This document shows positions 12,167 through 21,159 of a stretch of 64,000 nucleotides of DNA, piece after piece (position 1 is the stretch's first letter; each line of letters opens with the position of its first letter). The position numbers and the translations under genes are program-made. The DNA comes from Escherichia coli (GTDB lineage: Bacteria > Pseudomonadota > Gammaproteobacteria > Enterobacterales > Enterobacteriaceae), in NCBI RefSeq assembly GCF_030013205.1, contig NZ_CP122648.1; one strand, written 5' to 3'. The notes beneath the pieces are model-generated. The model was given only the letters and a program-made list of their open reading frames with translations. It was not told where the DNA came from and made no database searches.

Positions 12167-14401
<2,235 letters not shown>

Positions 14402-14675
14402 TTATAATTGAATTAATCCACGGATGCGATAGTTGAGATCTTACATATTGTTGGTTAAAGAGATGTAGATCAAATTGATCGTAATTAAGCCTTTTTGATT
14501 ATGTCCGAATTCGGACAAATGCTTTATAAAAAAGGGTTTTAGCTTTATATCCTTCAAGTAATGAGGGAGAAAACAAGGCTGACACCCTTATTTTCCCGCC
14601 CTCATTTCGAGGCAGCATTTTGTGCTCTGTTTAAAATTTGTGATCACTGTGTGATTTTCACAAAAGCCACACTAT

Positions 14676-15569
<894 letters not shown>

Positions 15570-15606
15570 TTACCTCATCAATCGCTTGTCGTTATATGTT
15601 GTGTTG

Positions 15607-15646
15607 TGAACATCTATCCATTTAGACGTCCAGATGTAAAGATGAA
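15607..15646 (-). promoter_or_regulatory. tandem MetJ boxes (metF operator)
   Basis: tandem 8-bp units resembling AGACGTCT (…TTAGACGTC CAGATGTA AAGATG…) 40-80 bp upstream of metF start. Confidence 0.5.
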
Positions 15647-15947
15647 GGAAAAGCCGAGGGGCGTCAACCGAAAAATGACCAATGATGGTGAGGAAAAATC
15701 AGGGAAGTTGAAAAAAACTCATCTTAATTAGAGGCGATAAAAGATTTCTCTATAGCGCAATCCACCTCGCACGTTTTGACTGATATTCTGACAACACAGC
15801 GACACCTGGGCTTATTCGAAAAACAACGTCCTGCCACCGGATGGTGATGCTAAGGCATCTGATTCGGCCTGCGCCCTCGCGTAGGCCGAATACTGGATCT
15901 GCAAAATCAACTGGTAACAAACAGATGAATCAACTCAATACGTACTT

Positions 15948-17501
15948 TTACTTGATATCTTTCACGCGCATACCGTTGATCTGTTCATCCGTGATGGTGT
16001 TACCCGCTTTGAAGTAATCAACCACGGCGTGATAAACGTAATAACCGCCCGTTGTGTTACGCGCTTTCCCTTCGGTAAAGGCGGTAAAACCATCTCCACC
16101 ATCAGCAAGGAAACTCTGGGTGGCAATAGAATAAACTGTCGCATCTTCAATGGGTTTGCCATTCAGAGTCAGCGTGATTACCCGCTGACCAACCGGCTTA
16201 TTGCTGTCGTACTTCATTTCCAGGCCTTTCGATACCTGTAAAACGCCATTACTTAAACTTGCGCCGTGTTCCATCAAACTGCGTAATTGTTTACCCGTGA
16301 GTTCCATCGTCACCAGTTCGTTGGGGAACGGGAAGGTACTGATGACGCCGCCCATCGTAATCGCCCCTGCGGGGATCTCATTGCGAATGCCGCCAGAGTT
16401 GGTTAACGCCAATTGGGTGTTTTTACCCGCCGCTACCAGTAAAGCATCAGCCGCCAGGTTCCCGAGGGAAGCCGATTCACCATAGGCACGTTTTAATTCA
16501 ACCGGCGATTTCGCGACCGTTTGTTGCACCACTTCATCAAGCTTTTTATTCCAGCCGTCGATCACCTGTTTCGTTTGCGGATCGGGCTTCCACTCGTCGG
16601 CGTAAATGGTTTTAAGCTCGAAGTTTTTCACCGTAAAATCATGCGGCTTCTCTTTGTAGTCCAGTACCAGTTTACCCACATCAATCCCACCGCTGTCAGT
16701 GGAGAGGATGAGCGTATTGCCGACTTTAATCGGTTCCGGCGTACCCACATGCGCATGTCCGGTGATCAAAATATCCAGCCCTTTCACCTGACTTGCCGTC
16801 TGAATATCTTTATCCAACGCGCGACGCACATCGGTCCCTCCCATACTGGACTGGCGGGCTGGAACACCTTCGTGGATCAGGGCGACGGTCAAATCAACCT
16901 TGCCTTTGAGTTCATCGATATAACGTTGTAGCCATTTAATTTCATCGCGCGCTTCAATACCCACGCGCGTGGCAGCAGATACCGTATCGTTGAAGGCAAA
17001 TACTCCGTGCAAACCTATAACGCCTATTTTCACGCCGTCTTTTTCGATGATGGTATATGGCTTATCCCAGAATGATTTACTGCTGTTCTGATAAAAAACA
17101 TTGCCCTGCACAATAGGGAATTTTGCCTGACTCAACTGTAATAATGTGTTGTCCCAGCCGTGGTCAAATTCATGGTTGCCTATCGTGACGGCATCAAACG
17201 GCATAGTATTCATAATATCGATAATAGCCTTACCTTTGGTCAGGCTGCTGATATATGGCCCGGTAAAATAATCACCCGCATCAAAAAACCATGTCGCTTT
17301 ATTTTTTGCTTTTTCTTGCTTAACCAGCGTAGTGATATTTGCCCAGCCACCAATATCCCGTTTACCGTCAGCGATCCACGGCACTTTATAAGGCTCGACA
17401 TGCGCATGGAGGTCGTTGGTATAAATGATGGTGACATCTTTGGCGCAAGCCCAGAACGGCAATGTTAATGCGATACCCGCAGCAAGTATTTTAATTTTCA
17501 T
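15948..17501 (-). CDS. secreted bifunctional metallophosphatase/5'-nucleotidase family protein (UshA/CpdB-like)
   Basis: 517-aa ORF with signal peptide ([18 protein letters not shown]) and calcineurin-like phosphoesterase motifs (DLHAH…GDYF…GNHEFD…GHAH); sits in an insertion between metF and metL. Confidence 0.8.
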
Positions 17502-17633
17502 AAATAGTCCCTTTCAGTGATTTAAAGGATTGCTACATTACGTTCTGAAAGAGTTATTTATGTGAGAGTAATCACATCCACAGGGGAGCGTTGCCGGACA
17601 AAATCAACGACCTTGTGAAATCGTTGGTGATAT

Positions 17634-18350
17634 ATGTCGACTCTGTTTACGATTAATGCCTGCAAGTCGTTTGGTTGCCGTAATTTAGGGCAGCCAACAT
17701 CGACAGATTATAGCTGGCCCGACTATCGACTGGGTTATCCGGCATTGCACTGTCGGGCATGCGGAAGTTACCCGCCGTTGTTTGACGAGCAACAATTTCG
17801 TGACTGGTTGACAGTTCACTTATCTACTTTTGCAACAGAGAAAGGCCATTTTTGCCCGGTATGTTATGGTACAGATACGATTTGTTATGGTCACAATCCA
17901 CAGGGTTCGCAACGCATTCAATGCCGTAACTGCAAAAAAGTATGGACACCCAAACAATATCAGAAAGAAATAACGCCTCCTGAAATAATCGAAACGGTTG
18001 CTTTTCTCGTGCCATTTCAGGGAGTCAGCAGCGGGCAGAAACTGTATGTTTTAATCAGTTTTGATGCTCTTCGCGGTAATATTCTTCATCTTTCTACTAA
18101 TTACACGCAGCATCAGGCTGGAGAAAGTCTGCATTATCGATACAGAGGGAATGCAGAACCAGAGTTACACGAGAGTAATATTGTACAACGCGTTGATATG
18201 CGCGAAGCACAATTTCTACGCCGCAGTCAGTTTGATGAAATTCAGTATGGCAGCGCAGCGCTCAAACGCAATGCTAAAGGTGTTATTCTGCGTCCGGTTA
18301 TCACTGCACACGGGCATTTCAGAGTACTGATATTCTCTTCCCTACAGTAA
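17634..18350 (+). CDS. hypothetical protein with two CxxC-type Zn-ribbon motifs
   Basis: 238-aa ORF; CRACGS…CPVCYG…CRNCKK cysteine pairs; AT-rich; no core-genome counterpart at this position. Confidence 0.5.
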   Translation: MSTLFTINACKSFGCRNLGQPTSTDYSWPDYRLGYPALHCRACGSYPPLFDEQQFRDWLTVHLSTFATEKGHFCPVCYGTDTICYGHNPQGSQRIQCRNCKKVWTPKQYQKEITPPEIIETVAFLVPFQGVSSGQKLYVLISFDALRGNILHLSTNYTQHQAGESLHYRYRGNAEPELHESNIVQRVDMREAQFLRRSQFDEIQYGSAALKRNAKGVILRPVITAHGHFRVLIFSSLQ

Positions 18351-18478
18351 AAACACATGTAATTTCACACGAGTGTTTTTTAAGAGGTGCCATTATTACG
18401 GCATGGGCTGATCTGTTTCGCCAACAGCAAGGTGAGATTTGGTTTATTGAAGAGGAAATAGCTGACGATACCGATAAT

Positions 18479-18763
18479 ATGCCCTGGCGTTTTCAGAGAA
18501 CAACTTATCACGGCTGGTGGAAAAATCAGTGGCAACTCTGGGTTCAGGGAAAAAATCGTAAAATGGTATGTGCATTAACGGGCGGAAATATCAGCAAAGC
18601 TGAAATGCTCTCTTTAGCAACCAGCAGACATTTTATCGACTGGCTACATAAACAAGCAGTATTTACTCACAGCACCCCGCTTTCCGCAGGGCGCGTTACG
18701 CAAATACTGCTTTCTCTAGCTCAGGATTACAACAACTGCGCCAGGCGGTTAATATCCGACTGA
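18479..18763 (+). CDS. hypothetical protein; possibly the displaced 3' part of the upstream gene
   Basis: 94-aa ORF in the -1 frame relative to 17634..18350; its frame is open from 18329, overlapping the upstream ORF end; overlaps metL 3' end by 37 bp. Confidence 0.3.
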   Translation: MPWRFQRTTYHGWWKNQWQLWVQGKNRKMVCALTGGNISKAEMLSLATSRHFIDWLHKQAVFTHSTPLSAGRVTQILLSLAQDYNNCARRLISD

Positions 18764-21159
18764 ATCGCCCCTGCGGTGACGTCGCGCCCCGCGCCAGGCC
18801 CACGGATCACCAGAGGGTTATCGCGATACCAGCGGCTTTCGATGGCAAAGACGTTATCGCACGGCAGCAGTGATGCCAGCGGATGGTCTTCACGCACCGC
18901 TTCCACGCCCACACGCGCTTTGCCATTGGCATCGAAACGCGCCACATAGCGCAGCACCAGCCCCATTTCGCGGGCCGCTTCCAGTCGTTGCACCATCTGC
19001 TCGTTAAGTTCATCGCCGTTTTCAAAGAAATGGTCGATGCTACCGCCTTCGCAATGGGCAGGCACCAGCGATTCCACGCGCACCTGATCTGGTTCGATGT
19101 CGTAACCCGCTTCACGCGCCAGAATCACCAGCTTGCGCATCACGTCTTTGCCGGAAAGGTCATCACGCGGATCAGGCTCGGTTAAGCCCTGCTGCCACGC
19201 CTGATCCACCAGCTCGGTAAACGGCACGCTACCGTCGAATTGCAGGAACAGCCAGGAGAGCGTGCCGGAGAAGATCCCACTGATCGACAAAATAGTATCG
19301 CCGCTGTCGATCAGATCGCGCACGGTATGGTTGATCGGCAAGCCCGCACCGACGGTGGCGTTGTACAGCCAGTGACGCCCGGTTTTTTCGAAGGCGTCGT
19401 GGATCTGGCGATATTTATTGCTGTCGCTGGCTCCCGCCAGTTTGTTGGCGCTGATGACGTGGAAACCGTGGCTGGCAAAATCGAGATACTGATCAGCAAG
19501 CTGCTGGCTGGCGGTAACGTCCAACACCACTAAATCATCATACGGATGGGCGCGCATCCACAGGAACAGCGACTCTTCATCCTGCTCGACCGCTTCATCG
19601 TTGAAGAAGGCTAACGCGCGGCTGGCGTCCAGCCCGTCATAGCTCAACAGGCTGCGGCGGCTGTCCACCACGCCTGCCAGCACAAATTCAAAGCCGGTAC
19701 GCGCCGAAAGCGTGCTCTGCTCACGGGCGAACAGTTCCAGCCAGCGGGAACCGATATTGCCCTTGCCGAACAATACCAGGCCGATGCGTTTTTCTGCGCG
19801 GAAGACGGACTGATGCAGCCCCTGAATCAGGCTTTCGGTCGGTCCGGTGCGCAGTACTGCCACCAGGCTGATGCCGTCATCCGACTGCCAGGTAAATTCG
19901 ACCGGCTGGCCTTTCAGTTGCTGCCAGAAGCGGTGGCAATGCAGCGGGTTACGGGTTACGCCCGCCCCAACCATCGCCACCAGCGCCAGCCCCTGACGCA
20001 GGCGCAGTTCGCCAGGTAATCCCGCTTCGTCGAGGATTTTCAGCGCACTGTCGGCCACTTCTGAGGTGTAGCAAAATTGCAGCAACTGGCGATCGTTATG
20101 CACGCCAACCGCCAGTGGACGCACCTGAGCACGTTTCAGGATTTGGTCGATCTCTTTATGCGCCAGTTTGAAATCCTGACTGGCGGGCACCTGGAACTCA
20201 ATCAAACAGACATCATCGTGGCTGGTGACAATACGCGCACCAGTACCGGAGGCCAGCACGCGTTCAATGCGCGTGGAACCTTGATCCGGCGTGTAGCTAC
20301 AGCGCAGCTGCAGGTCGATTTCGCTGCCAGAAACCGGCTGTAAAGTACGGGCGTGAAGAACGGGAGCCGCCAGACGCGCCAGTTCGCTGGCTTCATCCAG
20401 ACGCAGCAACGGCAGCAGGCAGGCATCTTTCACTTTACGCGGGTCGGCACTGTATACCCCGGCGACGTCACTCCAGATGGTTACACGAGAAACACCCGCC
20501 AGCGCACCGATTTGTGTCGCGGAATAGTCGGAACCGTTACGCCCCAGCAGCACCGTTTCACCAGCGTTGTTACGGCTGATAAACCCGGTCACCACCAGAC
20601 GTTTACCCGGATGTTGTACCAGTAGCTGTTGCAGCAACGGGTAAGAAAGCCCTTCATCAACCTGCGGTTGCGCAGCGCGTTCAGCGCGTAAAAACTCGCG
20701 GGCATCAAGCCAGGCCGCTGGCAGCCCTTGTTGATTAAGCACCGCAGACATCAGGCGCGCCGACCACACTTCACCGTGACCCACCACTTCCGCATACACC
20801 GCATCGTTAATACCACTGTCGAGCAGCGCCGCCAGGCGTTCCAGATCGCTGACAAAAGCGCTAATGAGGCTATCGGCTTCTTCAGCGGGTAGCAGACCGC
20901 TAATCAGATCGCACTGATAGCGACGCAGCGTTTGTTGAACCTGATGCGCAGAGAGACGATCGGTCTGGCTTAGTTTCAACCAGTTAATCAACTGGTTAGT
21001 GGTGCTACCGGCAGCGGAAACCACCATCATATCGTCGGGCTGAGAGTACTCCGCCATAATGCCCGCGACACGCAAATAACACTTCACATCAGCCAGACTA
21101 CTGCCACCAAATTTATGCAGTTGACGACCTTTCGCCCCTGCCTGCGCAATCACACTCAT
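18727..21159 (-). CDS. metL: bifunctional aspartokinase II / homoserine dehydrogenase II
   Basis: 810-aa ORF MSVIAQAGAKGRQLHKFGGSSLADV…. Confidence 0.95.
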   Translation of the reverse strand: MSVIAQAGAKGRQLHKFGGSSLADVKCYLRVAGIMAEYSQPDDMMVVSAAGSTTNQLINWLKLSQTDRLSAHQVQQTLRRYQCDLISGLLPAEEADSLISAFVSDLERLAALLDSGINDAVYAEVVGHGEVWSARLMSAVLNQQGLPAAWLDAREFLRAERAAQPQVDEGLSYPLLQQLLVQHPGKRLVVTGFISRNNAGETVLLGRNGSDYSATQIGALAGVSRVTIWSDVAGVYSADPRKVKDACLLPLLRLDEASELARLAAPVLHARTLQPVSGSEIDLQLRCSYTPDQGSTRIERVLASGTGARIVTSHDDVCLIEFQVPASQDFKLAHKEIDQILKRAQVRPLAVGVHNDRQLLQFCYTSEVADSALKILDEAGLPGELRLRQGLALVAMVGAGVTRNPLHCHRFWQQLKGQPVEFTWQSDDGISLVAVLRTGPTESLIQGLHQSVFRAEKRIGLVLFGKGNIGSRWLELFAREQSTLSARTGFEFVLAGVVDSRRSLLSYDGLDASRALAFFNDEAVEQDEESLFLWMRAHPYDDLVVLDVTASQQLADQYLDFASHGFHVISANKLAGASDSNKYRQIHDAFEKTGRHWLYNATVGAGLPINHTVRDLIDSGDTILSISGIFSGTLSWLFLQFDGSVPFTELVDQAWQQGLTEPDPRDDLSGKDVMRKLVILAREAGYDIEPDQVRVESLVPAHCEGGSIDHFFENGDELNEQMVQRLEAAREMGLVLRYVARFDANGKARVGVEAVREDHPLASLLPCDNVFAIESRWYRDNPLVIRGPGAGRDVTAGAIQSDINRLAQLL

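Follow-up and report, generated by a model that had tools for sequence, protein, structure and literature searches.

The window, i.e., the entire 64,000-nucleotide stretch of Escherichia coli DNA that was analyzed, carries a nucleotidase gene between metF and metL, next to a divergently oriented gene that is annotated as a frameshifted 'cytoplasmic protein' and will be referred to here as the partner. This region of the window is 100% identical to that of pig-associated E. coli, including ETEC and O139:H1 isolates; in one of these, strain K_EC180, the identical locus encodes the RefSeq protein WP_063085504.1. The two genes and the segment that is absent from E. coli K-12 are listed below in the coordinates of the window.

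15717 to 18725, no strand assigned: segment absent from E. coli K-12, which has 197 unrelated bases between metL and the metF promoter region
15948 to 17501, minus strand: nucleotidase coding sequence, 517 amino acids, ATG start, identified by its Metallophos and 5_nucleotid_C domains, a PDB match and conserved residues
17442 to 17501, minus strand: predicted signal peptide, residues 1-20, based on inspection and on conservation of the cleavage position, with the predicted SPase I cut before K21
17634 to 18763, plus strand: partner pseudogene ('cytoplasmic protein'), frameshifted by a 1-bp deletion near 18329; the intact form has 376 amino acids

Domains, predicted export and distribution of the nucleotidase

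The reading frame described in an earlier note on this DNA was confirmed at these coordinates, on the minus strand and with an ATG start, and the two domains that had been named from the letters alone were both recovered by a Pfam domain search with scores above their cut-offs. The Metallophos domain (PF00149) spanned residues 24-252 and scored 48.1 bits (gathering cut-off, 21.5), and the 5'-nucleotidase C-terminal domain (PF02872, 5_nucleotid_C) spanned residues 335-477 and scored 135.6 bits (gathering cut-off, 23.6). The protein is indeed shorter than its two well-known relatives, as the note had stated; with the E. coli K-12 proteins (NC_000913.3) as references, UshA has 550 amino acids, i.e., 33 more than the nucleotidase, and CpdB has 647.

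Inspection of the N-terminus revealed a basic n-region, a hydrophobic core and an A-x-A site, followed by the mature start KDVTI, and found no twin-arginine motif. Comparison with the relatives was in agreement: the signal peptides of all orthologues and paralogues stop directly before the motif [K/Q][D/E][V/I/L]T, and the alignment with the chains of the PDB entries 3IVD and 3IVE begins at residue 19. The sequence 'FWAC' could be mistaken for a lipoprotein signal; this reading was rejected and a lipobox is considered unlikely, because the Cys is not conserved, being Ser in Enterobacter and Leu in Vibrio. The paralogues, moreover, have plain A-x-A sites. The claim of a Sec signal peptide was thus borne out by inspection and by the conserved cleavage position, and the nucleotidase looks like a Sec-exported, soluble periplasmic protein of the SPase I type.

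In E. coli the gene is accessory, being present in 1844 of 5426 complete genomes, as compared with 5422 and 5420 for the core genes ushA and cpdB, respectively. Three states of the locus were found. The empty state is that of K-12; the short form, to which this window belongs, consists of the nucleotidase and the partner and occurs in approximately 1175 genomes, as counted by partner allele; and the long form, found in 659 genomes and common among extraintestinal pathogenic strains, adds two signal peptide-bearing paralogues of 516 and 539 amino acids (58% and 65% identical to the window nucleotidase, respectively) and a 286-residue nucleoside channel of the Tsx family (score with the Tsx subfamily model, 492.8 bits; cut-off, 311). 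None of these three additional genes is present in the window strain. The idea that the short form is a recent deletion product of the long form found no support, as each form has a full-length partner allele of its own and these alleles diverge by about 20% at the DNA level.

The partner protein was used as query with one genome per species, and 34 loci were recovered; in 33 of these, the partner has a nucleotidase orthologue as its direct upstream neighbour, in divergent orientation. The position between metF and metL is that of most Enterobacteriaceae, including Citrobacter, Klebsiella, Kosakonia, Phytobacter, Kluyvera, Pseudocitrobacter, Superficieibacter, Salmonella arizonae and Escherichia. 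Since this site is common to many genera, it is the ancestral one, and the segment was most likely lost by K-12-type E. coli. A recently acquired island or mobile element was rejected on the same ground; in addition, no repeats bounding the segment were found when searched for, and the partner exists as a single copy. An Rfam scan of positions 14000-19500 returned no hits.

The state of the locus also bears on whether the gene still has a role in the window strain. Here the partner is frameshifted and the remainder of the long form is absent, and in Salmonella and some E. coli the module is present only in fragments, all of which would fit a decaying remnant without current function. Nonetheless, we regard such a remnant as extremely improbable. 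The reading frame is intact and all catalytic residues are present; furthermore, a comparison of two E. coli alleles of the gene showed 58 differences in 1554 bases, and of the codons affected 47 were changed synonymously and 8 non-synonymously, such that the gene is under purifying selection. The frameshift itself does not extend beyond a small lineage, represented by 19 genomes with 99% identity or higher. The other short-form genomes align with one base more in the partner (1094 vs. 1093), and the one that was compared base by base has an intact partner.

Catalytic residues and place in the family

In the UshA/CD73 family, the N-terminal domain binds two metals, which activate a water and stabilize the phosphoryl transition state with the assistance of a His-Asp dyad, while in the C-terminal domain the nucleoside is sandwiched by two phenylalanines; a rotation of the domains then carries the substrate to the metals. 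The corresponding residues of the nucleotidase were located by alignment. The metal ligands of UshA (D41, H43, D84, N116, H217, H252 and Q254) match D30, H32, D77, N109, H210, H249 and H251, such that every ligand is kept and the loss of metal-binding residues, which the earlier note had named as grounds for abandoning its reading, did not materialize. The UshA dyad of H117 and D120 matches H110 and D113, and its nucleobase-stacking pair, F429 and F498, matches F392 and F464. The C-terminal domain also keeps R373, N394 and D470 in the alignment with UshA and CpdB, R373 being the equivalent of the phosphate-binding R410 of UshA. In contrast, UshA R375 and R379 align with L336 and Y340 throughout the subfamily, both island paralogues and the Vibrio orthologue included, with a conserved arginine, R338, two residues away. 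Phosphate recognition, and hence the substrate, may therefore differ from those of UshA and CD73.

The relationship to UshA and CpdB is distant. By BLASTP, the nucleotidase is 24% identical to UshA and 23% identical to CpdB, which disposes of a duplicate of ushA or cpdB or an assembly artefact, a second eventuality that the note had raised. It also reached no equivalog cut-off of the NCBIfam models for UshA (NF007109; 151.5 against 600), CpdB (NF006938, 102.4 against 486; TIGR01390, 101 against 883), NadN (133.8 against 436), SoxB (154.4 against 550), the YfkN type (183.6 against 1646) and Nt5e (152.5 against 1050), and therefore no specific activity can be transferred to it from these models.

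In a sequence search of the PDB, the best match was 3IVD/3IVE ('Nucleotidase'), with approximately 98% identity over residues 19-517. It was followed by the Thermus thermophilus 5'-nucleotidase 2Z1A (E value, 3e-45) and the snake-venom and human ecto-5'-nucleotidases (about 1e-33 to 1e-35), and then by NadN (5e-30), UshA (1e-22) and CpdB-type domains (1e-12 to 1e-14). Because the Thermus enzyme and the ecto-5'-nucleotidases rank ahead of NadN, UshA and CpdB, the nucleotidase represents, by this sequence comparison, a separate lineage of long standing within the family rather than a paralogue that arose recently from UshA or CpdB. The earlier designation as a third UshA/CpdB-like paralogue can be kept as a count for the window strain, where it is the third family member besides the core genes ushA and cpdB; it does not hold in the sense of a recent paralogue, nor for the species as a whole, as some E. 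coli carry three such extra genes.

It is to be noted that the enzyme was already known through its solved structure, its RefSeq annotation and a published mention of the locus. The entries 3IVD and 3IVE, which we take to be structural-genomics depositions of the putative 5'-nucleotidase c4898 of E. coli CFT073 with bound uridine or cytidine, represent the same protein in a different allele, with 9 substitutions that are those of the long-form allele plus one more. RefSeq labels the protein 'bifunctional metallophosphatase/5'-nucleotidase'. The locus is listed as genomic region GR31 (metL..metF) in a genome paper of 2026 on BEN2908, an avian pathogenic strain. From in silico evidence alone, its authors suggest that the three ORFs with UshA domains and the homologue of Tsx serve to process and transport nucleosides, and the published comparison gives about 28% identity to Bacillus subtilis YfkN (PMC12928451). 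Literature searches for the nucleotidase found no biochemical, genetic, localisation or expression study, and those for c4898, c4893-c4897 and 3IVD/3IVE found nothing relevant.

Two alternative activities have to be weighed against these residues and scores. The first is that of a CpdB-like 2',3'-cyclic nucleotide phosphodiesterase/3'-nucleotidase that would process RNA breakdown products, in keeping with motif V, which reads GHAH as in CpdB where UshA has GHSQ, and with some sources that tag homologues as 2',3'-cyclic-nucleotide phosphodiesterase. However, the clamp is Phe/Phe as in UshA and not Tyr/Tyr as in CpdB, the dyad residue D113 and the arginine R373 are kept where CpdB has Asn and Tyr, respectively, the score against the CpdB equivalog is far below its cut-off (102 vs. 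486), and the C-terminal extension of CpdB is absent; this activity is thus judged very improbable.

The second is a broad pyrophosphatase/phosphodiesterase resembling UshA and NadN, with UDP-sugars, NAD, FAD, CDP-alcohols and nucleoside di- and triphosphates as its main substrates and the hydrolysis of 5'-NMPs as the last step. The pair of domains and the catalytic residues are those of UshA and NadN, the Leu and Tyr in place of R375 and R379 suggest another mode of phosphate binding, and the three diverged long-form paralogues (58-65% identity) suggest that substrates might be divided among them. On the other hand, the scores fall far under the cut-offs of both models (151.5 vs. 600 for UshA; 133.8 vs. 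436 for NadN), and the loss of arginines that bind the additional phosphates in UshA favors, if anything, a smaller phosphate moiety. We consider this activity rather unlikely, although less so than the CpdB-like one. The substrates that we favor are the 5'-NMPs, which are, on a modest balance of probability, the main ones.

The divergent control region and the partner protein

The nucleotidase and the partner are separated by an intergenic region of 132 bp, in which the following elements were recognized.

17508 to 17513, minus strand: Shine-Dalgarno-like AAGGGA, 6 nt before the ATG, by reading of the sequence
17535 to 17540, minus strand: putative -10 hexamer TAATGT (TAAnGT in other genera)
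17561 to 17576, no strand assigned: perfect CRP consensus, TGTGAGAGTAATCACA, the sole match in 64 kb, with 0.16 expected
17605 to 17626, no strand assigned: inverted repeat CAACGA-N10-TCGTTG, shortly before the start codon of the partner

The CRP site lies 67 bp upstream of the nucleotidase start codon. When the corresponding intergenic regions of 31 species were compared, the best CRP-like site scored at least 9/10 in 27 of them, of which 22 were perfect; in nearly all regions the site starts 59-60 nt from the nucleotidase start codon, and its 6-nt spacer is free to vary. This pattern of conservation is such as selection on a protein-binding site would give, and the nucleotidase is probably transcribed in a cAMP-CRP-dependent manner. 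A scan for consensus promoters detected no strong sigma-70 promoter that would serve the nucleotidase, as is expected of a promoter that depends on an activator. If the proposed -10 hexamer is accepted, the CRP site might be tentatively placed near -40.5, in a class II arrangement. Nearer to the gene, the CCCTTTCAGT block at the Shine-Dalgarno site is kept in other genera.

In nucleoside promoters of the CytR/CRP type, a CytR operator is flanked by tandem CRP sites at a spacing of about 53 bp. Another TGTGA-like site does occur at this distance (17614-17629; 53 bp off), but it is not conserved in other genera, and a CytR-type tandem promoter was therefore rejected. The inverted repeat in front of the partner was found as a strict pattern in 17 of the 31 species and is a candidate for either an operator or a hairpin in the 5'-UTR.

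The partner, the 3' end of which overlaps the 3' end of metL by 37 bp, belongs to a family, with roughly 126 representatives, of proteins of about 375 amino acids with four Cys pairs (Zn-ribbons) and an RNase H-like transposase fold. It reached no Pfam or NCBIfam family cut-off, and a PDB profile search with the alignment of the family gave only compositional zinc-finger matches. An active DDE transposase or insertion sequence was ruled out by the alignment, in which the DDE triad is not conserved and E247 alone is invariantly acidic, by the lack of terminal repeats and by the single copy per genome. The partner differs in these same respects from IS1 InsA/InsAB', other DDE transposases and retroviral integrases, and also in that it keeps, in two bacterial families, a constant divergent arrangement with metabolic genes; in concept, it may be likened to transposase-derived transcription factors.

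More distant relatives of the partner offer a further view of its possible role. Some flank genes for a NupC-type transporter and a phosphorylase (nupC/udp-like), and others flank DeoB-like, phosphorylase and NupG-like genes. We tentatively propose, with confidence somewhat short of even, that the partner represents an undescribed family of regulators derived from an IS1-like transposase, which together with CRP would control genes of nucleotide and nucleoside utilisation in Enterobacteriaceae, Vibrionaceae and their relatives. The nucleotidase would be the main target, next to NupC/NupG-type transporters, nucleoside phosphorylase and phosphopentomutase, and CAACGA-N10-TCGTTG would be the operator. 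A literature search for a transposase-derived nucleoside regulator found none. If the proposal is true, the partner would be a rare bacterial case of a transposase turned transcription factor and would supply a missing regulator of nucleoside catabolism in enteric bacteria and vibrios.

Proposed role and comparison with known systems

When the catalytic residues are considered together with the CRP site, the neighbourhoods of the partner relatives and the Tsx-like channel of the long form, the nucleotidase is likely a periplasmic nucleotide-hydrolyzing enzyme used for scavenging, and its role is most likely the catabolite-controlled dephosphorylation of nucleotides in the periplasm. Scavenging had been suggested in the earlier note, and this idea is strengthened by the channel, the conserved CRP site and the partner relatives near nucleoside genes.

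The same observations bear on a different role, in which the enzyme would degrade signalling or host nucleotides (cyclic dinucleotides, or extracellular ATP and AMP to adenosine) and thereby serve host interaction in pathogenic E. coli, in parallel to the surface nucleotidases of streptococci and staphylococci. The gene is accessory in E. coli, with its long form common in extraintestinal pathogenic strains, and the family does include such enzymes, the models of Nt5e and of surface-anchored nucleotidases matching weakly. Nonetheless, the module is an ancestral one and is widely found among environmental, non-pathogenic members of the Enterobacteriaceae and Vibrionaceae, and the CRP site, the nucleoside channel and the partner contexts of the nucleoside-catabolism type all point to nutrition, such that we find a role in host interaction improbable.

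In the scavenging role that we prefer, the enzyme would act as follows. Two metals would be held by D30, H32, D77, N109, H210, H249 and H251, with H110 and D113 as the catalytic dyad; in the C-terminal domain, F392 and F464 would form a clamp around the nucleobase and R373 would bind the phosphate, and closure of the domains would then lead to hydrolysis of the phosphoester. The reaction is most likely the conversion of a 5'-NMP to nucleoside and phosphate, perhaps extending to longer or pyrophosphate-linked nucleotides, and the products could be taken up via nucleoside transporters. Activation by cAMP-CRP from the class II-type site, which would lie some 40 bp before the putative transcription start, would cause the enzyme to be made when good carbon sources are scarce, as are other nucleoside-catabolism genes. 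The nucleotidase and the partner constitute an old two-gene module of Enterobacteriaceae and Vibrionaceae, in which the divergent, transposase-derived Zn-ribbon protein may be the dedicated regulator of the nucleotidase. In the window strain the 1-bp deletion inactivates this partner, and nucleotidase expression may be altered or lost as a result. It is from sequence and gene context that we infer the substrate, the localisation, the CRP dependence and the regulatory role of the partner.

As an annotated member of a well-understood family with a solved structure, the enzyme by itself adds little; the partner, which is conserved and undescribed, is the more valuable lead. For E. coli physiology the enzyme is of modest importance: in one-third of the strains, as many as three additional nucleotidases are found in the periplasm, joined in 12% by a second Tsx-like channel, and this could alter feeding on extracellular nucleotides and on breakdown products of DNA and RNA in the gut or urinary tract.

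Comparison with characterized systems places the nucleotidase as follows. Among the NCBIfam subfamilies, the best match was the C-terminal 5'-nucleotidase half of Bacillus subtilis YfkN (183.6 bits; model positions 629-1097); YfkN, however, is a fused, wall-anchored, trifunctional protein of more than 1,100 amino acids, and the cut-off of its model (1646) is far from reached. Among the solved structures, Thermus 2Z1A, CD73 and the snake-venom 5'-nucleotidases are the best matches after 3IVD and align from end to end, yet they are distant, and they keep the arginine equivalent to R354 of CD73 (R379 of UshA), whereas the nucleotidase has Tyr340. CpdB shares the N-terminal domain of the superfamily, the GHAH motif and the periplasmic location, but at 23% identity it differs in its Tyr/Tyr clamp, in the lack of the dyad Asp and in the long C-terminal extension that brings it to 647 amino acids. 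UshA has in common with the nucleotidase its two-domain architecture, the positions of the metal ligands, the Phe/Phe clamp, the His-Asp dyad, the signal peptide and one of the arginines that bind phosphate; in contrast, the two are only 24% identical, Q254 of UshA is replaced by His and R375/R379 by Leu/Tyr, and UshA belongs to the core genome of E. coli whereas the nucleotidase is accessory.

The partner gene

The gene divergent to the nucleotidase, here called the partner, was found to be a frameshifted copy in the window:

17634-18763 (+): partner gene, frameshifted by a 1-bp deletion near 18329

It belongs to a conserved family without a Pfam match, annotated as 'cytoplasmic protein' and about 376 amino acids long, in which four Cys pairs and a transposase/integrase fold of the RNase H-like type, lacking the DDE triad, were recognized. 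When one genome per species was scanned, the nucleotidase and the partner were divergently paired in 33 of the 34 species. It is to be noted that the lengths recorded for this family in databases are unreliable, because gene callers chose internal Met codons as starts, as in a Vibrio locus (L007, 5583-7000) and in another compared locus (L015, 4645-5000); in both, the true open reading frames reach further upstream and include the Cys-rich N-terminal domain. Separately, the partner reading frame and the convergent metL share 37 bp at their 3' ends (18727-18763), as they do in L016, a strain whose partner gene is intact.

Sequence elements flanking the nucleotidase

Two elements were located in the divergent intergenic region, and a third downstream of the nucleotidase:

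17561-17576: perfect CRP consensus TGTGAGAGTAATCACA, by sequence match
17605-17626: inverted repeat CAACGA-N10-TCGTTG, immediately 5' of the partner start codon
15862-15891: 9-bp inverted repeat ATTCGGCCT...AGGCCGAAT, 57 nt 3' of the nucleotidase stop codon

The CRP consensus occurs only once within the 64-kb window, and its position is kept, with a variable spacer, across Enterobacteriaceae and at one Vibrio orthologue locus. In many enteric genera the arms of the CAACGA-N10-TCGTTG repeat are conserved and its spacer varies, and the repeat is a candidate operator or 5'-UTR hairpin; the left arm is CAGCGA in Enterobacter, a change that would preserve pairing, as G-U, in the partner mRNA. The downstream repeat lies upstream of the metF promoter region and, since it has no T-run, was ruled out as a canonical intrinsic terminator. 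Transcriptional read-through from the nucleotidase towards metF is conceivable.

Variation of the locus among genomes

A long form of the metF-metL segment is present in 659 of the 5426 E. coli genomes, exemplified by two compared loci:

L003, 4410-8557: long-form segment
L004, 11044-15191: long-form segment

It adds two nucleotidase paralogues with signal peptides (516 and 539 amino acids), the larger of which carries a 22-residue Asn/Asp-rich insertion in its N-terminal domain, and a 286-amino-acid channel of the Tsx family. In Salmonella the nucleotidase-partner module appears to be decaying: the partner match is confined to residues 126-367 in S. enterica subsp. arizonae (L043), and the annotated nucleotidase reading frames of S. 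enterica serovars (P0088, P0100, P0134) are only fragmentary. The single exception among the 34 loci was Vibrio aquaticus (L050), where a nucleotidase-like gene, only 34% identical, lies upstream of the partner in the same orientation, with a NupC-like gene about 4 kb downstream. Distant relatives of the partner were also found to flank nupC/udp-like and deoB/nupG-like genes.
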